A stretch of 64,000 nt of DNA from assembly GCA_963768425.1 (NCBI GenBank), contig CAVYHV010000014.1, positions 96,001 through 160,000 of the forward strand, given 5' to 3'. Below, one piece after another: positions 4,042 to 14,267 of the stretch. Position 1 is the stretch's first letter; every line of letters starts with the position of its first letter. The notes beneath the pieces are model-generated. The model worked only from the letters and a program-made list of their open reading frames with translations, did no database searches and was not told the origin of the DNA. The DNA is from Candidatus Bathyarchaeota archaeon. Its GTDB lineage: Archaea; Thermoproteota; Bathyarchaeia; Bathyarchaeales; Bathycorpusculaceae. The position numbers and the translations under genes are program-made.

Positions 4042-5175
4042 ATGGATACTTTGGTTGATGACGTCGGAAGTTTTCCCCTGCCCCCACGCGTGAACAAGGA
4101 GGCTTTCAGCGAAGCCTATCGCCGGTCAAGGGCGGCGGCAGTTGAAGGCAAAGACCTGCGGGCAGATGCTTTTTTGGAGACCACCTTTTGTTCCATCGTG
4201 CTTGAATCCTTCAGGTTCAAGCTTGCGTCGGGTTTAGATGTGGCGAATTTTCCTCAACACTATGAAGGGATGAGACAGGTTGGAGACGTTTTGCATGCGG
4301 CAATGGAAACGGGTTCCTTTCTTGTGAATGAGAAGTCAGCGGTTTTACCTGAGGTCTACCTGATCGGTCAAGAAGCCAAGACGCTAAGCGAAGAACTGGG
4401 CAGAAAAATCCAGCTGAGAGTCTCAATTTTTGGCCCGCTTGAACACTACTTGCACGAAATCGGGAACACGCCTTACCAAGATGTCTTGGAGGGTTTGGCT
4501 GGGACGATTCAGCGATTCGCGAAAAACAGCGTATTAAACAACAAGTACATCGAAACGGCTGTGGTTTCGATTGATGAGCCAAGTTTCGGCTTCAACAACA
4601 TTCAAGCCCCATCTGACGTCATCTGCGGAGTACTGGAGAAAACTTTTGACTTCAAAGGCGCAGTCCGTCAGATTCATCTTCATTCGGCTGCTGGAGTCCA
4701 CGATTTGCTGTCTGTAAAAAACCTTGATGTCCTCTCGTTCGAGTACGCCGCTTCACCGAAGAACATTGACGCAGTCCCAAAAAGCATGCTTGAAGGGGCG
4801 GATAAGCAGATTCGCGTAGGAATCGCCCGAACAGACATCGATAGCATTTTGGCTGAGCTTTACGAGAAAGGAGTTGGGAAACCTTTAGCCGACCAGTTGG
4901 TTGAACCAAAAGAGACGATAGAGAAAAGGTATAGGGTTGCGAAACAGAAATATGGCGATCGGATGACTTTTACGGGTCCTGACTGCGGGTTAGGAGGCTG
5001 GCCTAGCCAAGAATCGGCACAACTTTTGCTGGAACGCACAGTAAAAGCGGTAAAACTGGCCCAAAAAACTAGCATAAAAAATGAAGAAAGAAAAAGGGTT
5101 TGCCTTAACAGGATTATTCGGTTGATGTTGGTTTCTTCTTCGCCTGTTCCTGCTGTGCTTTGGTCAGGTCTTTGA
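4042..5175 (+). CDS. cobalamin-independent methionine synthase, catalytic-domain (MetE core) family
   Basis: DVGSFP, SIDEP, HLH, GPDCGLGGW motifs; true stop is probably TAG 5070-5072 (A6 run at 5063-5068 one base short). Confidence 0.8.
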   Translation: MDTLVDDVGSFPLPPRVNKEAFSEAYRRSRAAAVEGKDLRADAFLETTFCSIVLESFRFKLASGLDVANFPQHYEGMRQVGDVLHAAMETGSFLVNEKSAVLPEVYLIGQEAKTLSEELGRKIQLRVSIFGPLEHYLHEIGNTPYQDVLEGLAGTIQRFAKNSVLNNKYIETAVVSIDEPSFGFNNIQAPSDVICGVLEKTFDFKGAVRQIHLHSAAGVHDLLSVKNLDVLSFEYAASPKNIDAVPKSMLEGADKQIRVGIARTDIDSILAELYEKGVGKPLADQLVEPKETIEKRYRVAKQKYGDRMTFTGPDCGLGGWPSQESAQLLLERTVKAVKLAQKTSIKNEERKRVCLNRIIRLMLVSSSPVPAVLWSGL

Positions 5176-5944
5176 AGCCGTAGGTTCCAACTGGTGGCCA
5201 GCCTGCTTCCGGCATTACCGCTGGAATTAACATGATTGTGTTTGTTTGTGATTGTTGGCCTAACTCGTAGAGGATGTTCATCCATCTGAGTCTTAGTCCG
5301 TCTGGGCTTGCCTCGTACGCTTTTGCTGCTTCAATCATTTTTTGTGATGCTTCAAACTCGGCTGTGGCTAAGGTTACTCTTGCGATGCGTTCCCGTTCGG
5401 CTTGTGCTTGACGCGACATTGCATCTTGAAGGTTGCCTGGTATTATGACGTCTCGAACTTCGACGGCAGTCACTTTGATTCCCCAATTCTCCGTTTTCTC
5501 ATCGATGATTTCCCGCAGGGTTGCGCCGACTTTTTCGCGTTCCGCGAGTAGCTCATTTAGGCTTTGCTTGCCGATGACTTCCCGAAGAGTTGTCTGTGAA
5601 GCAAGTTGGGTTGCTTGGTAGTAGTTTTCAACTTGCAGAACAGCTTTTTCCAGATCAACGGGCTTCATGTAGAGTACTGAGTCTACGTTTACAGGAACGT
5701 TGTCTTTTGTTAGTGTTGATTCTGTTCGGAACTGTATCGTGTCCAGCCTAGTTGAAATTTTTAGAGGGGCTCTGTCGATTATTGGGACAAGGTAGATGAT
5801 TCCGGGGCCTTTAAGGCCGATGTAACGTCCTAAACGCAGAACAGGCATTCTTTCCCATTCTTTTAGTATTCGAATTCCGCTCAGCAAGAAGACAATTATA
5901 ATAAAGACAATAAAGCCGATCAAACCGATTAAAAGTGGATCCAT
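5114..5944 (-). CDS. SPFH/stomatin (slipin) family membrane protein
   Basis: RLGR..GPG, TKDNV, AMSRQAQAERE motifs; GAGGT SD before ATG 5944. Confidence 0.92.
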   Translation of the reverse strand: MDPLLIGLIGFIVFIIIVFLLSGIRILKEWERMPVLRLGRYIGLKGPGIIYLVPIIDRAPLKISTRLDTIQFRTESTLTKDNVPVNVDSVLYMKPVDLEKAVLQVENYYQATQLASQTTLREVIGKQSLNELLAEREKVGATLREIIDEKTENWGIKVTAVEVRDVIIPGNLQDAMSRQAQAERERIARVTLATAEFEASQKMIEAAKAYEASPDGLRLRWMNILYELGQQSQTNTIMLIPAVMPEAGWPPVGTYGFKDLTKAQQEQAKKKPTSTE

Positions 5945-5983
5945 TTTTTCAAACCTCAACTAGCTATTCAGCGGTTTATGGAA

Positions 5984-6379
5984 TTAAGCTTTTTGCTCGG
6001 CTGCTTTAACTATAAGCACGTTGCCGTCCAAAGCTATGACTTGCACGGTTTGGCCTAAAGTTATGGGTGCGTCTTTGGAGGTTGCTGCCCAGATTTCGCT
6101 GAAGACTCGAATTTCGCCTTTGGGGTTAAGATTAGTTGTTGCAACTCCTGTTGCTCCGATTAAGGCTTCTTTACCAGTTTTGACCCGTTGAAACTGTGAC
6201 TTGAATCCTGCCGCGAATATAAGAATCATGATTGCTGCGACGGCAAACAAGGTCGCAGCCAACGCGGCTTCGTCTGAAGCGCTTAACCCGATGAAGCTCA
6301 CGCCTACGAAAGCTACGTAAACGAGGAAGGCTCCAACTGCTACGAGCAATCCGATGACAAGCGCTAGCGAAACATGCAT
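5984..6379 (-). CDS. NfeD-like protein (short form, OB domain)
   Basis: TM helices plus TGKEALIG..LNPKGEIRV..EIWAA; adjacent to SPFH gene. Confidence 0.85.
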   Translation of the reverse strand: MHVSLALVIGLLVAVGAFLVYVAFVGVSFIGLSASDEAALAATLFAVAAIMILIFAAGFKSQFQRVKTGKEALIGATGVATTNLNPKGEIRVFSEIWAATSKDAPITLGQTVQVIALDGNVLIVKAAEQKA

Positions 6380-6626: not shown

Positions 6627-7400
6627 TTAGGAGTCCAAGAGACTTTGCAGCAGCTTGATGGCTGACCATGCTGCCAGGGCGCTGGTATGGGGGTTGTCTG
6701 GGTGAGGGTCGTTTGCAAAACGCAGAAACATCTCACCGAACCGCCAGCTAACCTGGATTTCATGCGTGTTCCGCTTAACAGAGGGATCAGAGACTACGCG
6801 AACTTTTACTCTGACAGGCTTGACCGTCAATGCCAAAGTTGCAGCGACATTCATCTCCCGCGGAAACAGCTTCACAGCCTCCTCCGCGTACCCTTCGTAA
6901 ACAACAGCCTCAACCTTGTTGTCCTTGCTAAGAGCATTTGGGTTTTTGCGAGAAGTCAAAGTTACCTCATCGATCCCCGCCAGGGAGGCGCTGGAAAGAG
7001 CGTCCAACCCGCCGATAGCTCCAGAAGGGACATGAACCCGCCCTAAATCAAATTCCAACCCAAGCAGTGCACCGGTGCTCATCACGATGACCTCGGCGCC
7101 TGAAGAAGCAATCTTCGGTACAAAATCCCGAGCAGCCTTCTGCGACGCGGCTTCCACAACGACTTTAGGCTTTTTGGCGAGAAGTTCATCCACGCTCTTT
7201 ACAATTGTGACGGGAAACTTTAGGGCACCCATGAGTTTCTGCGCTTTCGAGTCGTCGATGTCGTAGACAAAAAGTTCGTCGCACACAACGAGTTTGCGCT
7301 CGATTGCTTCAGCTAAAACTGTGCCGATTGCGCCACACCCGATTAAACCAACCTTCTTTTTTGCTTTGCCACTCACGGTTTGTGCCTTCATGTTTCCCAT
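6627..7400 (-). CDS. nadX: L-aspartate dehydrogenase
   Basis: GLIGCGAIG, VEAAS, SGAIGGLD, FP..MNVAA, NPHTSALAA; start uncertain (7400, 7391 or 7376). Confidence 0.88.
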   Translation of the reverse strand: MGNMKAQTVSGKAKKKVGLIGCGAIGTVLAEAIERKLVVCDELFVYDIDDSKAQKLMGALKFPVTIVKSVDELLAKKPKVVVEAASQKAARDFVPKIASSGAEVIVMSTGALLGLEFDLGRVHVPSGAIGGLDALSSASLAGIDEVTLTSRKNPNALSKDNKVEAVVYEGYAEEAVKLFPREMNVAATLALTVKPVRVKVRVVSDPSVKRNTHEIQVSWRFGEMFLRFANDPHPDNPHTSALAAWSAIKLLQSLLDS

Positions 7401-7473
7401 TTTGCTTCTAGACGTTAAAGTTGACGGTAGGAAAACTAAAATACCTCCTAAAAACATTATCCCCTAAAGAAAA

Positions 7474-7564
7474 GTTCTCGGGGAGCTGGGAAAGACCCGG
7501 CTGAGAGGACGGCTATTTGCTGTCGACCCTTAGAACCTGAACCAGGTAATGCTGGCGGAGGGAA
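7474..7564 (+). ncRNA. TPP (thiamine pyrophosphate) riboswitch
   Basis: GGGGAGC...GCTGAGA...GACCC TTAGAACCTGA ACCAGGTAATGCTGGCGGAGGGAA matches the THI-box consensus; lies directly upstream of thiamine genes. Confidence 0.93.
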
Positions 7565-7567
7565 AAA

Positions 7568-8113
7568 ATGAACGCAAATATATTGAATGTAGCCGATAAA
7601 AACCAGATTTCTCAAACAAAAAGATTGTCATTAACAGGAGTTATGGCGGCGCTAATCGCTGTAACAACTATTATTGCAATACCTTTGCCACCTCCTCTTT
7701 CAACCATCAACTTGGCGCCTGTAATCATATTCACAGTATGCATACTTCTTGGACCATGGGTAGGCTTCACTTGTACTGTGATTGGGTGCGGCATCGGCTA
7801 TTTGGCTGGAACAAGTCTTGGAACTATAATTGTCCCACCCGGATTCCTGTACATCTACCTGGTCGGATTAGTAGCTGCACGAGGTCCAATGGCATTAGCT
7901 GTCGGTGGATTAAGAAAGAAAAGTGAGCCCGCAGGCATGGTTCTGGGAGTTGTCATTGAGACAATGATTTTCTTCAGTATTGACTTCATTCTATTCGGGC
8001 TTGGATTCGCGTTATTTGATCTAGGAACCTTTGTTGACTTAGTATTTGTACCCATAACTGTCGCGGTTCTTATTGCCATTAGAAGAATTTTCGATACCAA
8101 GTACCTATCCTAG
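7568..8113 (+). CDS. ECF transporter S component (thiamine or precursor)
   Basis: GVMAALIAV..IAIP..INL..LLGP..G pattern, about 6 TM; follows TPP riboswitch. Confidence 0.85.
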   Translation: MNANILNVADKNQISQTKRLSLTGVMAALIAVTTIIAIPLPPPLSTINLAPVIIFTVCILLGPWVGFTCTVIGCGIGYLAGTSLGTIIVPPGFLYIYLVGLVAARGPMALAVGGLRKKSEPAGMVLGVVIETMIFFSIDFILFGLGFALFDLGTFVDLVFVPITVAVLIAIRRIFDTKYLS

Positions 8114-8123
8114 ATGACAAAAA

Positions 8124-8801
8124 ATGGGCAGCAACACACGTTTTAAACAGGAACAAACAGCTAAAGATTATGAATCATATTATGAAACAAAATATAGAAA
8201 CGTCGACTTGCTTGAGAAGAAACTGATAAAGCAACTTTTTGAGCAGTTTCCTGAAGCAAAGAATGTTTTGGAAGTAGGTTGTGGAACCGGGCATTTTACT
8301 ATGTGGATAAAATCTTCTCTTCTCATAGAATCCATCGGCATCGACACATCAAAAGCCATGCTTAAAGAGGCAAAAATTCGTTGGCCTCAAGGCCCTTTGC
8401 TTCAAGGAGAAGCTACTCGATTACCGTTTATGGATAAATCCGTAGATGTTGTGGCGTTCATAACAAGCTTAGAATTCATCCAAGATGCCGTTGGAGCTCT
8501 TGAGGAAGCAGCGAGGGTAGCAAAGATCGGAATAAATCTGGGTCTTATGAATAAGAACAGCATAGGCACGTTGAAAAAAAGGTTTCAGGCTGCAACTCTA
8601 AAAGACTCATTCTATAGGCAAGCAAAATTTTATTCAGCTTCAGATATAGAAAAAATGTTGGAAAACATTCTTGCAAAAAAACATAATATTGCATTTTGCC
8701 GTACCACGGTTTTTCCTAAACCGTTCAGTGACAAGGAGTCCTCGATTTTCTTGTTCGGTGGGTTTCTTGGAATAGCAATAAAAATAGGGGATACCCCATG
8801 A
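8124..8801 (+). CDS. class I SAM-dependent methyltransferase
   Basis: VLEVGCGTG, LPF.D.S.D, SLEF..D..ALEEAARV. Confidence 0.9.
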   Translation: MGSNTRFKQEQTAKDYESYYETKYRNVDLLEKKLIKQLFEQFPEAKNVLEVGCGTGHFTMWIKSSLLIESIGIDTSKAMLKEAKIRWPQGPLLQGEATRLPFMDKSVDVVAFITSLEFIQDAVGALEEAARVAKIGINLGLMNKNSIGTLKKRFQAATLKDSFYRQAKFYSASDIEKMLENILAKKHNIAFCRTTVFPKPFSDKESSIFLFGGFLGIAIKIGDTP

Positions 8802-9850
8802 GTAAGACTGGAAAATTTCCTTATGACTTAATCGAGAAACTCATTTACCCTAAACTGGGCGCAGAGAGGGCGGAAGTGCTTATTGGTCCAGGTGCAGGCC
8901 GCGACAACGCAATAATCAGCTTAAAAGGAGGTCAAGTGTTAATAGCAACCGCTGATCCGCTGTCAGTCATACCTGCGTTGGGAGTTAAGGACTCAGCGTA
9001 CATCTCGGTCCATTTGCTTGCATCAGACTTAGTGACTTGCGGTTTTGCCCCGCAGTTTTTTATGGTTAACCTTAACTTACCCCCTGAAATGAGCGACAAA
9101 GACTTTGAAACATACTGGAAAACTATAGATGAAGAATGCAGAAAACTCGACGTCGCCATCGTCGGAGGGCACACAGGCAGATATCCAGGGTCAAGCTACA
9201 CAGTTGTCGGCGGAGGCGTAATGATGACGATTGCGCCTGAAAAACAATACGTTGCGAGCACTATGGCAAAACCTGGCGACCTGATAATAATGACCAAAGG
9301 AGTTGCAATAGCTACAACCGGGATACTTTCAAGAGTCTTTCCAAAAACAGTTGAAAAACGATACGGTAGCTCATTTCTGACTAAGGCTCAGCAATACCTT
9401 GGTTATTTTAGTGTGGTTGAGGATGCGTTAAGTGCGGCTTCAGCAGGTTTAAGGGATCGCGGGGTTACAGCCATGCATGACGTCACAGAAGGCGGATTAC
9501 TAGGAGCACTATACGAGTTTTCTGAGGCATCCAAAACAGGCTTAGAGGTAGACCTTTCTAAAGTTATAGTCACTGAGGAAACAAACGGGATTTGTCAACT
9601 GTTCAAGATTTCTCCTTACTCATCCCTAAGCGAAGGAACGCTTATCCTAACTGTTAAACCCGAAAAAGTCTCCGCCGTTCAGCAAGCATTAGATTTGAAT
9701 GGGATAAAAAACTCCGTGATCGGAAAAATGACTAACGCAAGGGATGGCAGATGGATTAAATCGGCAGATCAACGGGAGACTTTGCGTAAACCTGACTCTG
9801 ACCCTTATTGGGAAGCGTATCGCAAAGCAAGTAGTGAGGGTTGGAAATGA
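8798..9850 (+). CDS. AIR-synthase-like (PurM/HypE/ThiL superfamily) ATP-binding protein
   Basis: GPGAGRD, IVGGHT, AMHDVTEGGL, SEGTL. Confidence 0.88.
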   Translation: MSKTGKFPYDLIEKLIYPKLGAERAEVLIGPGAGRDNAIISLKGGQVLIATADPLSVIPALGVKDSAYISVHLLASDLVTCGFAPQFFMVNLNLPPEMSDKDFETYWKTIDEECRKLDVAIVGGHTGRYPGSSYTVVGGGVMMTIAPEKQYVASTMAKPGDLIIMTKGVAIATTGILSRVFPKTVEKRYGSSFLTKAQQYLGYFSVVEDALSAASAGLRDRGVTAMHDVTEGGLLGALYEFSEASKTGLEVDLSKVIVTEETNGICQLFKISPYSSLSEGTLILTVKPEKVSAVQQALDLNGIKNSVIGKMTNARDGRWIKSADQRETLRKPDSDPYWEAYRKASSEGWK

Positions 9851-10485
9851 AAAATCGTCATAAGCTTGCGGGTCTGTATCTTGTTGTCTCTCCAATTTTG
9901 CCTGATGAACAACTGTTGATTGCTGTTGAGAAGGCGTTGGACGGAGGAGTTGACATTCTGCAGTTTTCAGCTAGCAAAGAGAGTGTGGAGATGAGTATTT
10001 TAGCGAATGGACTTTCCGGTTTAGCAAGAAAGCATGGAATCCCGTTTATTGTTAACAATAACTTGGAGTTAGCTAGAGAAGTTAAAGCGGAGGGTGTTCA
10101 CTTGGACACTTTTGAGGTTTTTCCGGCCGAAGTTCGATCCCTACTCGGGGACGAATCAATAGTTGGTTACACTGTGAACTTTAATTTAGAAAAAACCAAA
10201 TTGGCGGAAAAAGTAAACGCAGATTACGTATCATTTTGCTCAGTTTTTCACCAATGCCCCGGTAACCAATGCCCAATAGTGCCAATTGACAAAATAAAAG
10301 AGGTAACATCAAGCACAAAGCTTTCGGTCTTCGCTGCAGGCGGAATAAACCTTGAAAACATCCTTTTGGTTCTTCAAGCGGGAGTCGACGGAGTTGCAGT
10401 AACAACTGCCATCCTTAAATCAAAAGACCCCCAGCAGACCGCGAAAGACCTCAAACAAGTTATAACTGAATATGGAAAAAATTAG
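9847..10485 (+). CDS. thiE: thiamine-phosphate synthase
   Basis: GLYLV, GGVDILQ, FIVNN, GVHL, AAGGI, GVDGVAV; ATGA overlap with previous gene. Confidence 0.88.
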   Translation: MKNRHKLAGLYLVVSPILPDEQLLIAVEKALDGGVDILQFSASKESVEMSILANGLSGLARKHGIPFIVNNNLELAREVKAEGVHLDTFEVFPAEVRSLLGDESIVGYTVNFNLEKTKLAEKVNADYVSFCSVFHQCPGNQCPIVPIDKIKEVTSSTKLSVFAAGGINLENILLVLQAGVDGVAVTTAILKSKDPQQTAKDLKQVITEYGKN

Positions 10486-10510: not shown

Positions 10511-11389
10511 TTATTTTTTAAGCTCGGACAGAACAAAGTTGACTATCTCTTCGGCTATGTTGATTTTGGCAACCACCTGCAGACCCTTCCAGCCTGGCTG
10601 ACTATTCACATCTACGATTCGCGGTCCATCAGGTCCTTCAAGGATGTCTACTCCAGCAATTTTGCAACCCACAGCTCGTGCTGACTTTATGGCTAAGTCT
10701 TCGAATTCCTTGCTGATTTCAGCCGGTGCAGGTTTGGCTCCTCTGCTGTAATTGGTTTTCCAGCCTTCTGCCACACGCCTCATAGATGAAACGACTTGGT
10801 CGCCAATTACGAAAGCTCGTATGTCAGAGTGCCCGTGGGGTACGAATTCCTGCATGTAAATGACTCCGTGGTGGAAGGTGATGGCTTTGAAAATGGTGTC
10901 GGCGATGTCTATGTCGTTTATCCGTGTTGCGCCTTGTCCGCGTGATCCAAAAATCGGTTTAACCACTATGTCGCCGCCCAACTCATCGAATGCTTTTAGG
11001 GCTTCGTTAACGCTTTCCGTGGCTAAAGTGCGTGGGACTGGAACCCCGATGTCCTCCAGGAGCGCAAGGATGTCGTATTTGTCTACACAATGCTCTATAG
11101 CTGTTGGCGGGTTGACCATGTAGAAGCCTTGGCGTTCAAGCTTGTAGAGCATGTCCATTCGGAAAACGAGTTCTTCTAGTGAGCCGCGTCCGATGGGTCG
11201 GATGATGAGTGCGTCTAAATCATCCAGCAGGCTTGTGTTGTTGGCTTTGAAGTATGGTTTGTACGCGAGCCTTGCGACGAGCCGTGGAAAAGTGAAGCAT
11301 TCATACTGGATGCCTCGCTTAATTAATGCTTCCCGAACTTGGCTGCTGCTCCATGCTTCCGGGTTCCGAGTCATTATCCCAAATTTCAA
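10511..11389 (-). CDS. RimK-family ATP-grasp alpha-L-glutamate ligase (MptN/CofF-like)
   Basis: VVKPIFGSRG, QEFV, DIRAFV, WKTNYSRG, AGVDIL..VNSQPGW. Confidence 0.9.
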   Translation of the reverse strand: MKFGIMTRNPEAWSSSQVREALIKRGIQYECFTFPRLVARLAYKPYFKANNTSLLDDLDALIIRPIGRGSLEELVFRMDMLYKLERQGFYMVNPPTAIEHCVDKYDILALLEDIGVPVPRTLATESVNEALKAFDELGGDIVVKPIFGSRGQGATRINDIDIADTIFKAITFHHGVIYMQEFVPHGHSDIRAFVIGDQVVSSMRRVAEGWKTNYSRGAKPAPAEISKEFEDLAIKSARAVGCKIAGVDILEGPDGPRIVDVNSQPGWKGLQVVAKINIAEEIVNFVLSELKK

Positions 11390-12308: not shown

Positions 12309-14267
12309 CTATTTTACGCGTTCAAGTCGCAGAGAATTAAGCAAAAGAAGCATCGTGACTCCATCATCGCCTGCAATAACGGTTGCAAGCAATCCAGTCA
12401 CTCCGAGGACGCCTAATGCTCCTAAAATGAGTTTTATTACTAGGGAAGCGGCTATGTTTTGTCTGGCTATCCCCATTGTTTTGTCGCTGAGCCCAATCAA
12501 GTATGGGATTTGGGCCAGCTCGTCTTTTACCAGCACAATGTCCGCTGATTCCAACGCAACGTCGACCCCGGCTGCTCCCATTGCTATGCCGACGTCTGAA
12601 ACGGCCAGTGCGGGAGCATCGTTGACTCCGTCGCCGACCATCGCCACAAGCCCGTCTTTTCCCTTCATTTCCTCGATGCACTTGAGTTTGTCCTCAGGAA
12701 ACAGCTCAGCGTACACTTCGTCGATTTTCAGGGTTGCCCCAGTTTCTTTGGCGATTTCCGTTCGGTCGCCAGTAAGCATCGCTGTTTTTATGCCTTTTTT
12801 CTTTAAGTCGCTAACGGCTTTTAATGCATCTTCCCGCACCTGATCGATTACGCAGACCGTAGCTAACCCTTCTTTTCCGACGGCGACGCAGACTGAAGTA
12901 TGGGTGTCCGCCTCGTCTATTGCCATGGCTTCTTCGCAGTTACAGTCAAATTGTTTCATGAGTTCTGGGTTTCCGACTGCTACAAAGTTGCCGTTGACGC
13001 TTCCGATTATACCTTTGCCAGCGACCTCTGTGACGTCTGTGACTTTGTACTTGCTAAGGTCTATACCTCGCTCTGTTGCACGCCTCACTATGGCTTGGGC
13101 GACGGGATGATTAGAGAATTGGTCAAGCGCAGCTGCAAGTGCCAACGCTTCCAGCTCGGTTCTATGCGCCAGTCTAACTTCGTGGACAGAGGGTCTTCCC
13201 AGCGTTAAAGTTCCGGTTTTGTCGAAGACTACCCGTTTGACTTTGGCGAGTTTTTCCACGTAGATTCCGCCTTTGATGAGTACACCTCTTCGGGCAGCAA
13301 TAGTAATTGCTACGAAGACGGTTGCGGGAACCGAGATTATAAAGGCGCTTGGGCAAGAAACCACGATGAGGATAAGAGATCGGTAAAGCCAAGTGTTGAA
13401 GGACGCGTTGAAAACCAGTGTCGGCACCACAGCGGTTACTGCCGCAATTGCGATGACAATTGGAACGTAAATTTTTGCGAATCGGTCAACAAGCTTTTCT
13501 ATGGATGCCTTCCTCTTGCCGGATTCGGATACAAGGACCATGATTCTTGAAACAAGGGTTTCGCTTGCCTTTTTAGTAACCGCGATTTTTAGGACGCCGC
13601 TCATGTTTAAGGTGCCAGCGTAGACGCAATCATCGATTTTTTTGGTAACGGGTACGGATTCACCTGTTACCAGTGCTTGGTCCACATGCGAAAAACCTTC
13701 TGTCACGTTTCCGTCTAAGGGGATGCGTTCGCCGGGTCTTACCAGCAGGATCATGTTGGGTTGGACTTCGTTGACGCCGACGGTTTTTTCGGATCCGTCT
13801 ACTATGATTCGGGCGCGGTCAGGCATAAACTTTGACAGTTTTTCCACCGTTCGTCGTGCCCTGTCTTCGATGTAACCTTCAAGGTATTCGGCGATGGAGT
13901 AAAGAAAAAGCACTGTTGCTGCTTCAAAAAATGCGTGCAAATATAGGGCGCCAAGAGCCGCAACTGCCATTAGGAATTCCACGGAGAACCTTTTTTCCAC
14001 AAAAAGTTCTTTCAGTCCGACAAGGCCAATGTAGATTGAGGCGAAGAGAACTACGACGTAGTAGAGTATGATGCTTAAGCTGGCTTTGACACTAACGAGG
14101 GGGATTGTGAAGTTAAGGGGCACACCTTTGAAGATAAGATCTAGCAAGCCGCCTATGGTTATGGTTATGCCCAACAGAACGGCGAAAGTAACAATCACTT
14201 GTTTGCTCTTGGGTTGTACCTCTTTTTGCTCCTGTTTTTCAACGCAGGTTTTATCCTCAAAAGTCAT
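12309..14267 (-). CDS. P1B-type heavy-metal ATPase (ZntA/CadA-like)
   Basis: TGES, SCPS, DKTGT, HP, GDGVNDAPAL. Confidence 0.93.
   Translation of the reverse strand: MTFEDKTCVEKQEQKEVQPKSKQVIVTFAVLLGITITIGGLLDLIFKGVPLNFTIPLVSVKASLSIILYYVVVLFASIYIGLVGLKELFVEKRFSVEFLMAVAALGALYLHAFFEAATVLFLYSIAEYLEGYIEDRARRTVEKLSKFMPDRARIIVDGSEKTVGVNEVQPNMILLVRPGERIPLDGNVTEGFSHVDQALVTGESVPVTKKIDDCVYAGTLNMSGVLKIAVTKKASETLVSRIMVLVSESGKRKASIEKLVDRFAKIYVPIVIAIAAVTAVVPTLVFNASFNTWLYRSLILIVVSCPSAFIISVPATVFVAITIAARRGVLIKGGIYVEKLAKVKRVVFDKTGTLTLGRPSVHEVRLAHRTELEALALAAALDQFSNHPVAQAIVRRATERGIDLSKYKVTDVTEVAGKGIIGSVNGNFVAVGNPELMKQFDCNCEEAMAIDEADTHTSVCVAVGKEGLATVCVIDQVREDALKAVSDLKKKGIKTAMLTGDRTEIAKETGATLKIDEVYAELFPEDKLKCIEEMKGKDGLVAMVGDGVNDAPALAVSDVGIAMGAAGVDVALESADIVLVKDELAQIPYLIGLSDKTMGIARQNIAASLVIKLILGALGVLGVTGLLATVIAGDDGVTMLLLLNSLRLERVK

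Follow-up and report, generated by a model that had tools for sequence, protein, structure and literature searches.

A TPP riboswitch-controlled operon of a soil Bathyarchaeon joins a PurM-fold protein, a methyltransferase and a rebuilt ThiE homologue in a putative thiamine salvage route

Thiamine biosynthesis is usually held to be solved, and vitamin B1 auxotrophy is called from ThiC, ThiD, ThiE, ThiG and ThiM. Salvage operons controlled by a thiamine pyrophosphate (TPP) riboswitch are known from bacteria, where they are of the thiW/thiM/thiE or thiM-thiD-thiE type, and the bacimethrin cluster of Clostridium botulinum combines a TPP switch with an O-methyltransferase gene and with ThiD-like and thymidylate-synthase-like genes. 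Here we describe a four-gene operon at positions 7568–10485 of a 64,000-nucleotide stretch of DNA, hereafter the window, from the soil archaeon Candidatus Bathyarchaeota archaeon (positions 96,001 to 160,000 of contig CAVYHV010000014.1, assembly GCA_963768425.1). As in the thiW/thiM/thiE-type operons, a TPP aptamer is followed by an S-component-type transporter, a kinase-like enzyme and a ThiE-fold synthase, with ThiL finishing the pathway. Here, however, a PurM-fold protein and an S-adenosylmethionine (SAM) dependent methyltransferase stand in place of ThiM and ThiD, the ThiE protein is atypical, and the S-component shows no match to ThiW, ThiT or HmpT. The bacimethrin cluster was weighed as a model and set aside, its ThiD-like and thymidylate-synthase-like genes being missing from the cassette. 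What is new is thus a riboswitch-run thiamine salvage operon made of non-orthologous and remodelled enzymes. A search of full-text literature, with subscription journals and supplements outside its scope and mentions in regulon tables possible, returned no description of the cassette, of a role of the PurM-fold family in thiamine metabolism, or of a link between Trm112 and thiamine.

Families were called by Pfam and NCBIfam profile searches and RNA elements by an Rfam scan of the whole window. All four genes lie on the forward strand. The first (7568–8113) encodes a 181-aa protein of the energy-coupling factor (ECF) transporter family PF07155 (ECF-ribofla_trS; 35.5 bits, cut-off 26.7). Its TAG stop codon at 8111–8113 is followed by a 10-nt spacer and the ATG at 8124 of a 225-aa class I SAM methyltransferase (MT; 8124–8801; Methyltransf_11, 68 bits). 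An ATGA at 8798–8801 overlaps the MT stop with the start of a 350-aa PurM/AIRS-fold protein, hereafter the AIRS-like protein (8798–9850; AIRS PF00586, 54.3 bits; AIRS_C PF02769, 78.4 bits), and a second ATGA at 9847–9850 overlaps the stop of the latter with an in-frame ATG of a ThiE homologue (TMP-TENI PF02581, 129.4 bits). Because of this overlap, 9847–10485 is the likelier extent of thiE than 9841–10485, which would give 214 aa from a TTG. Judged by the overlaps and the common strand alone, the four genes are probably co-transcribed. Open reading frame (ORF) map, Pfam matches and junctions agree throughout with an initial annotation of this DNA, which had described four genes joined by a 10-nt gap and two ATGA overlaps behind a riboswitch, with thiM and thiD outside the operon; no operon protein matches PF08543 (ThiD) or PF02110 (ThiM).

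Searching one genome per species gave 556 relatives of the AIRS-like protein; the 80 best loci were retained, and their gene content was established by tblastn with the four proteins of the window. Sixteen of the 80 are titled Bathyarchaeota or Bathyarchaeia (62–82 % identity to the AIRS-like protein of the window); the others are one contig of an 'Acidoferrum' metagenome-assembled genome (MAG; 65 % identity, archaeal gene order), one further Bathyarchaeia locus (L046, 39 %), one Gammaproteobacteria MAG (45 %) and 61 Bacteroidota (37–43 %). MT, AIRS-like and ThiE genes are colinear in 78 of these loci, with the MT gene always preceding the AIRS-like gene; the exceptions are L031, whose contig begins within the AIRS-like gene, and L046, which holds the S-component and AIRS-like genes only. 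An S-component was found in 17 of the 18 archaeal-type loci; the remaining one lies on a cut contig. The 62 bacterial loci all lack it, and each of them carries, after ThiE, a Trm112p-like gene (PF03966) that occurs in no archaeal-type locus. The 'Acidoferrum' locus (L025, contig DASPTR010000132.1, titled Candidatus Acidoferrum sp.) has an archaeal-type cassette including the S-component and is probably a misbinned Bathyarchaeia contig. Within the Bathyarchaeia, five genomes sampled from the genus of the window are all without the AIRS-like gene, which seven of eleven genomes of a more distant family, f29, carry; this patchy distribution suggests gain of the cassette by transfer or repeated loss.

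The TPP aptamer at 7469–7580 (+) matches Rfam RF00059 over the full model (positions 1–105) with 64.7 bits, the gathering score being 54.3, and it is both the sole Rfam family in the window and the sole TPP switch of the genome. A Shine-Dalgarno-like GGAGGG (7555–7560) lies inside its 3' part, just upstream of the ATG at 7568; from this overlap, TPP would exert control by hiding the ribosome-binding site. A covariance model of our own, built from 14 cassette aptamers and run over the 80 loci, placed an aptamer 5' of the cassette, always on the + strand, in 77 of them, and the three loci without a match are contigs starting within the operon. With the Rfam model, a TPP switch adjoins the cassette in all 26 whole genomes, in 25 above the gathering score and in one at 44.1 bits. 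Linkage of the homologues to thiamine genes and TPP switches had been put forward in the initial annotation as a check on its reading, and the trio and aptamer counts across the 80 loci bear it out. Two Algoriphagus loci have a gene for a TonB-dependent receptor between switch and MT gene, and other Bacteroidota carry a second TPP switch elsewhere, controlling such a receptor.

In an alignment of the window aptamer with those of L041, L053, L054, L073 and L076, the Bathyarchaeia aptamers have an added helix (GGATGGC...GCCATC, a P3 extension) which those of the Bacteroidota cassettes do not have, so the switches of the two domains are not recent copies of one another, although the cassettes are homologous. 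Archaeal and bacterial cassette AIRS-like proteins form sister clades in our tree. As to where the cassette arose, Trm112 would suggest the Archaea and the riboswitch the Bacteria.

The genome to which the window belongs (G000; 2.96 Mb, 33 contigs, 91.29 % complete, 4.75 % contamination) encodes a canonical ThiL on another contig (246.7 bits; the AIRS-like protein of the operon reaches 87.7 bits in the same search), and the ThiE homologue of the operon is its single PF02581 match. At this completeness, profile searches gave no match to ThiC, ThiN or TenA, and Thi4 was not found either, its matches being of 28 bits and confined to the FAD-binding start of the model; ThiN was searched for in six genomes and Thi4 in this one. 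Weak ThiD and ThiM matches (19 and 22 bits) were considered as hidden kinases and rejected, as both fall on a single ORF, an NAD(P)H-hydrate dehydratase (Pfam, 186.5 bits), leaving ThiD and ThiM among the genes not found in this genome. Because a canonical ThiL is present while ThiC, ThiD, ThiM, Thi4, ThiN and TenA were not found, the organism should be able to turn thiamine monophosphate (TMP) into TPP but, by known genes, would be unable to feed its only TMP synthase. The ORF of the canonical ThiL (L001 1447–2406, G000 C8) ends in a TAG about 20 model positions short of the thiL model end; the match is reported with one internal TAG, which we read as a slightly short C-terminus.

Across the 26 whole genomes that carry the cassette, ThiC, full-length ThiD (179.9 bits) and full-length ThiG (363.5 bits) were each found once, all in the same genome (G015). 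ThiL exceeds the equivalog cut-off in 25 of them and is split in the 26th, and thiamine pyrophosphokinase occurs in 4 of 27 carriers. No convincing ThiM was found among the 26: three genomes gave matches of 40–43 bits, on two ORFs of about 520 aa and on a third of 275 aa that is an NAD(P)H-hydrate dehydratase. An even sample of Bacteroidota (n = 201) contains the AIRS-like gene in 5 and ThiD (E ≤ 1e-30) in 76 genomes without overlap, i.e. ThiD in 0/5 carriers versus 76/196 others, and among Bathyarchaeia (n = 151) the AIRS-like gene is present in 12 genomes, including that of the window, and ThiD (E ≤ 1e-25) in 70, again without overlap (0/12 versus 70/139); both contrasts are descriptive and not statistical, since kin are not independent. 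By their gene content, carriers are thus thiamine auxotrophs that keep ThiL.

Where the initial annotation had plainly written thiE, an atypical pocket had been overlooked. The protein scores far above the Pfam cut-off of 27 bits, whereas its 131 bits to TIGR00693 remain below the equivalog cut-off of 145.1. Its fold is the ThiE TIM barrel, with an AlphaFold2 (AF2) model of pLDDT 92.9 matching 2tps at a TM-score of 0.86. It shares with the ThiE proteins of B. subtilis (2tps, 1g4t) and P. furiosus (1xi3) the Q57-, H107- and S130-like residues and the phosphate site GGI/G.A..S; conservation there is complete for G167 and G168 and 90 % or higher for I169, G184, A186 and S189. Pairwise alignment with both proteins, with the PDB chain index plus 8 giving the customary numbering, puts S43, S45, N73 and E92 of the window protein in the positions of R59, K61, D93 and D112 of B. 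subtilis ThiE, and G141, C133 and C144 in those of K159, G151 and T162. The QxRxK motif accordingly reads Q-F-S-A-S in the window protein and Q-I-W-D-N in bacterial cassettes. We take R59, K61 and K159 to be the pyrophosphate holders and D93 and D112 to be the Mg holders of the B. subtilis enzyme. These roles did not come up for the terms searched in PMC3144219 or in a library search; a K159A structure appears in the PDB match list.

The same positions were counted in 76 ThiE proteins from cassettes with an MT gene and in 13 ThiE proteins that adjoin or are fused to an AIRS-like protein without one. Equivalents of R59 and K61 occur in none of the 76 (Trp stands for R59 in 63) and in 12 of the 13, those of K159 and D93 in none of the 76 and in all 13, and that of D112 in 11 of the 76 versus all 13. 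Conversely, C133 is found in 76/76 versus 0/13, C144 in 76/76 versus 5/13 and D89 in 74/76 versus 0/13. The single protein without Arg and Lys in the group lacking MT is a truncated sequence. On these counts, loss of what we regard as the anion-binding pocket tracks the presence of MT, from which we infer that MT may supply a pyrimidine donor with a leaving group other than pyrophosphate.

The MT itself is assigned to the class I SAM-dependent methyltransferases on its Pfam match and on a motif I of the form LE.GCGT which, together with 32 columns, is invariant across 36 sequences (L49, E50, G52, C53, G54, T55 and D74 among them). Searches of NCBIfam and the PDB gave no informative relative, and the nearest structures are uncharacterised. 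As bacterial cassettes bring their own Trm112 gene, the Trm112 homologues of the window's genome are relevant here: there are two, 96 % identical to each other (C7:8993–9262 and C23:9256–9525) and 33–38 % identical to bacterial cassette Trm112 over the full length. The predicted complex of the MT with the genome's Trm112 reached an ipSAE of 0.90 in three runs, compared to 0.01 for the best control, a mark attained by 58 of 80 solved complexes and by 2 of 110 mismatched pairs. Partner pLDDT in these models is 93–94, 98 % or more of the contacts recur from run to run, and the predicted contact runs via the MT strand around residues 91–107. The MT is therefore probably Trm112-dependent, although the prediction used alignments of our own making and similar complexes have been solved, making it a likeness rather than a proof. 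In this it resembles the Trm112 holoenzymes Trm9, Trm11, Mtq2 and Bud23, also class I methyltransferases; the partners that we know of modify RNA or protein, whereas this MT is locked into a thiamine operon and would act on a small molecule. The initial annotation had counted the MT as part of the thiamine route, which its co-occurrence with the rebuilt ThiE pocket supports, and had missed the Trm112 dependence. Each Trm112 copy lies downstream of a TRM5/TYW2-type methyltransferase gene, and the methyltransferase gene on C7 seems split into ORFs of 139 and 175 aa; the duplication may reflect strain heterogeneity or the contamination of the assembly.

For the AIRS-like protein, both Pfam domains and a fold match establish membership in the PurM/AIRS superfamily. 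Its AF2 model (pLDDT 92.8) matched HypE, SelD, ThiL and PurM in Foldseek at E-values of 1e-16 or better, with the HypE, SelD and ThiL folds about equally similar (TM 0.6–0.8), and the nearest PDB sequences are HypE and ThiL with 37 and 31 bits. The best NCBIfam match, thiL (TIGR01379), gives 88.2 bits, below the equivalog cut-off of 184.15. With ThiL (PDB 3c9t, 5cc8, 8yks) it shares the two-domain fold (TM 0.62–0.69), the thiamine context and the aspartate-rich ATP/Mg motifs, of which D36, D53, D77 and D228 are invariant in the family. It differs in its invariant N-terminal G-K and C-terminal DPYW..GWK motifs and in coexisting with a true ThiL, to which it is 22 % identical and whose presence rules out that it serves as the ThiL of this genome. 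In a tree, the cassette proteins, L046 and fusions to ThiN form a long-branched clade of their own, with AIRS2 as its sister and ThiL at a great distance. A profile search of 1.84 billion representatives recovered 957 AIRS-like clusters (50 % identity, E ≤ 1e-30); public names are 'HypE', 'hydrogenase maturation factor' and 'AIR synthase family protein', and the ESM Atlas holds only 'putative AIR synthase' clusters.

Fusions and neighbourhoods give the family its place in metabolism. A word-index search for longer fused forms had found none, which is weak evidence, and an exhaustive profile search then gave three fusions of AIRS with ThiN, the TMP synthase of archaea, in both orders, among its best 150 matches (P0169, P0176 and P0184). 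We further surveyed 80 metagenome loci that contain relatives of the P0176 fusion, with Pfam-checked neighbours. ThiE accompanies the AIRS gene in 15 of these loci, NUDIX in 10, Thi4 in 8 and ThiL in 3 (L148, L149 and L157, where a canonical ThiL adjoins it), and 11 of the 80 carry TPP aptamers. L150 holds an AIRS-ThiE fusion with a canonical ThiE domain of 218 bits. Fused thiamine enzymes are known from other systems, such as the archaeal ThiD-ThiN (ThiD-bearing ORFs of about 460 aa) and the fungal ThiE-ThiM protein THI6 (PDB 3nl2); the AIRS-type partner differs in having a PurM rather than a ribokinase fold, and the genes in the window are separate. Because of these fusions, neighbourhoods and aptamers, we place the AIRS-like family in the thiamine pathway, as an enzyme that by its genomic company works beside TMP synthases.

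In one lineage the AIRS-like gene belongs to an overlapping operon with genes for a PP-loop ATPase, a cysteine desulfurase and BirA (L153, L167, L170, L185, L190, L194, L201 and L203), NifS being present in 27 of the 80 metagenome loci; in L153 this operon adjoins Thi4 and a BioB-like gene. ThiG and ThiH, at first taken for recurrent neighbours of AIRS relatives, were identified by Pfam as these PP-loop ATPase, cysteine desulfurase and BirA genes. A SelD-like, sulfur-activating role for the relatives next to NifS was also considered and was discarded as it would be senseless in auxotrophs without Thi4.

The substrate of the AIRS-like protein is best approached from family f29 of the Bathyarchaeia. 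There a TPP switch, above the gathering score in six of seven loci, controls only an S-component of the same family as in the window and the AIRS-like protein. ThiE (PF02581) was found in none of seven f29 genomes at 77–94 % completeness and ThiD in none of eleven genomes of the family; in the one genome examined for ThiN and ThiL, ThiN was not found and ThiL is present. An AIRS-like enzyme would consequently be useful there only on a two-ring compound. The S-component is an ECF-type substrate-binding membrane protein by its Pfam match; searches for ThiW, ThiT, HmpT or another specific family beyond PF07155, in NCBIfam and in the PDB gave no match or relative. Its substrate would, from its context, be thiamine and/or a thiamine moiety.

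A related pairing lies outside the window but on its own contig, C14, at about 206,600–207,760 (L004 604–2268), where a RibU-type S-component (PF07155, 127 bits) is followed by an AIRS2 paralogue with 127 bits to the window protein. This paralogue is split by a frameshift into ORFs of 113 and 257 aa, and a TPP switch was not found at the locus. Five other Bathyarchaeia have an unbroken AIRS2 gene, which in two of them lies directly beside an S-component-like ORF. The pair on C14 may import and phosphorylate another vitamin, and its composition suggests a general 'import and trap' role.

We therefore read the AIRS-like protein as a pathway kinase that would use ATP and probably act on hydroxyethylthiazole and thiamine, and give a kinase of this hydroxyethyl group clearly more weight than a kinase of hydroxymethylpyrimidine phosphate (HMP-P). 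This preference follows from the f29 module with its missing ThiE and ThiD, from true ThiD genes near other AIRS relatives, from the absence of another source of thiazole phosphate, and from the pairing of AIRS2 with RibU. The initial annotation had proposed a non-orthologous thiazole or thiamine kinase, which fits the ThiN and ThiE fusions and the S-component-AIRS module without ThiE; a kinase of HMP-P stays beside it as the alternative.

Taken together, these roles, all deduced from genes, models and context, would make the locus a TPP-repressed salvage operon that lets an auxotroph produce TMP without ThiD or ThiM, a scheme to which we give an even chance. The S-component would import thiamine and/or its moieties. 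The AIRS-like kinase would use ATP on the hydroxyethyl group, as a best guess turning hydroxyethylthiazole into its phosphate (HET-P) and thiamine into TMP. MT and Trm112, using SAM, would make from a salvaged pyrimidine a donor that carries a leaving group other than pyrophosphate, and the ThiE-like protein, with its thiazole-phosphate site kept and its pyrophosphate/Mg site replaced, would couple this donor to HET-P, so that MT and the altered ThiE bypass hydroxymethylpyrimidine pyrophosphate (HMP-PP). Canonical ThiL would then make TPP from TMP, and TPP bound to the aptamer would mask the ribosome-binding site and switch the operon off. The undescribed salvage route suggested by the initial annotation is partly supported in this way, namely by a conserved, switch-linked cassette in carriers without ThiC, ThiD, ThiG and ThiM.

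A bolder joint reading, which we consider doubtful as a whole, would have methylation replace pyrophosphorylation in pyrimidine activation, with the rebuilt ThiE coupling the methylated donor and the AIRS-like protein being the first alcohol kinase of the PurM superfamily. The donor may be an ammonium derived from aminomethylpyrimidine, a sulfonium or a methyl-phosphate ester of HMP-P, and the Arg/Lys/Mg pocket of ThiE, now Trp/Asp/Cys, may work through a thiaminase-like cysteine adduct. With the AIRS-like protein serving both hydroxyethylthiazole and thiamine, three enzymes would replace ThiD, ThiM, ThiK and ThiE.

Several points weigh against the salvage scheme with a hydroxyethyl kinase, and some of them favour its strongest competitor, in which the AIRS-like protein is a non-orthologous kinase of HMP-P (or HMP) replacing ThiD, the ThiE reaction is ordinary and MT is accessory. 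ThiL, to which the family is paralogous, phosphorylates a phosphate and more naturally predicts a kinase of HMP-P, and to our knowledge an alcohol kinase is without precedent in the PurM superfamily. AIRS-ThiN fusions in both orders mirror the archaeal ThiD-ThiN fusion, with the AIRS-ThiE fusion alongside them, and L148 and L149 carry ThiC, ThiL and ThiN-AIRS without ThiD on what are short contigs. The genome-wide exclusion of ThiD in carriers of both groups also fits a substitute for ThiD. The auxotrophy itself is open to objection: PF08543 (ThiD) exceeds Pfam's own cut-off in 17 of the 26 carriers and PF05690 (ThiG) in 14, where we discounted as short the partial ThiD matches of 16 further genomes (over the 27-bit cut-off, at most 55.5 bits, on ribokinase-type ORFs) and the partial ThiG matches of 13 (at most 33.4 bits), and as most of the genomes are MAGs, an absence here means 'not found' in assemblies 77–100 % complete. 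Replacement of ThiD is, on the other hand, hard to reconcile with L186 and L162, in which true ThiD genes, scoring 297 and 275 bits, stand some 3 kb away from ThiE-NUDIX-AIRS. HMP-PP would be useless in f29, where neither ThiE nor, in the genome examined, ThiN was found; thiazole phosphate would still be without a source, with ThiM in none and true ThiG in one of the 26 carriers; and the cassette ThiE is without the aligned residues to which we ascribe pyrophosphate and Mg binding. We regard this explanation as unlikely, if a serious one.

Alternatively, the cassette might repair or detoxify a damaged or antagonistic thiamine analogue, with MT modifying the analogue, the ThiE-like protein exchanging a moiety, and TMP arising only from imported thiamine through the AIRS-like kinase. 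That the AIRS-like protein of f29 does its work with neither MT nor ThiE would agree with this, as would the complete de novo pathway of carrier G015, and the two invariant cysteines of ThiE are reminiscent of the cysteine-dependent pyrimidine transfer in thiaminases. Expression at low TPP, however, is more in keeping with supply than with detoxification, ThiE retains its thiazole-phosphate site, and the trio stays together in nearly all loci, in organisms without another TMP synthase, which makes such a role improbable.

Still less credit is due to the view that MT merely travels with thiamine genes and methylates RNA or protein like any other Trm112-dependent enzyme, leaving AIRS-like and ThiE proteins alone to act on thiamine compounds. 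All solved Trm112 partners that we know of act on RNA or protein, modifying tRNA, rRNA or release factors, which also counts against the small-molecule role in our scheme; the MT is predicted to bind Trm112, and the genome's Trm112 adjoins a TRM5/TYW2-type tRNA methyltransferase. Yet gene order and the overlap with the AIRS-like gene are conserved under a TPP switch across Archaea and Bacteria, bacterial cassettes hold an extra Trm112 gene without exception, and the presence of MT matches the rebuilt ThiE pocket exactly. Least probable of all is a ThiL isozyme, with the AIRS-like protein acting as a divergent second TMP kinase: superfamily, best NCBIfam match and the fusion or adjacency to TMP synthases would suit such a synthase-kinase pair, but its score is less than half the thiL cut-off, it shares little sequence with the genome's ThiL, its clade is separate and long-branched, and canonical ThiL is found in 25 of the 26 carriers and even adjoins the AIRS-like gene in three metagenome loci.

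The operon is flanked by genes on the opposite strand and thereby bounded as a unit, upstream by an aspartate dehydrogenase NadX (6627–7457, −; 223 bits) and downstream by a RimK-family ligase (10511–11389, −), whose nearest relative is the tetrahydromethanopterin:glutamate ligase MptN at 269 bits, below the 350-bit cut-off. Further out, a stomatin/NfeD-like pair (5114–6379, −) was named by eye from the sequences alone, and the label of a heavy-metal P-type ATPase-like ORF (12309–14267, −) was given without a profile search.

The operon points to a thiamine-linked PurM-fold family of 957 clusters whose present annotation stops at 'AIR synthase family' or 'HypE', and a ThiE that lacks its pyrophosphate site and is tied to a SAM methyltransferase holds promise of new enzyme chemistry. 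Cultivable carriers, for example strains of Mucilaginibacter or Cyclobacterium, and four small proteins make direct testing possible. Hundreds of soil, sediment and aquatic species of Bacteroidota and Bathyarchaeia have the full cassette, which is read today as a stray ThiE in an auxotroph. The cassette may explain thiamine salvage in archaea without thiamine pyrophosphokinase, and should it build TMP out of moieties in the environment, what is predicted for these groups about vitamin dependence and cross-feeding would be wrong.

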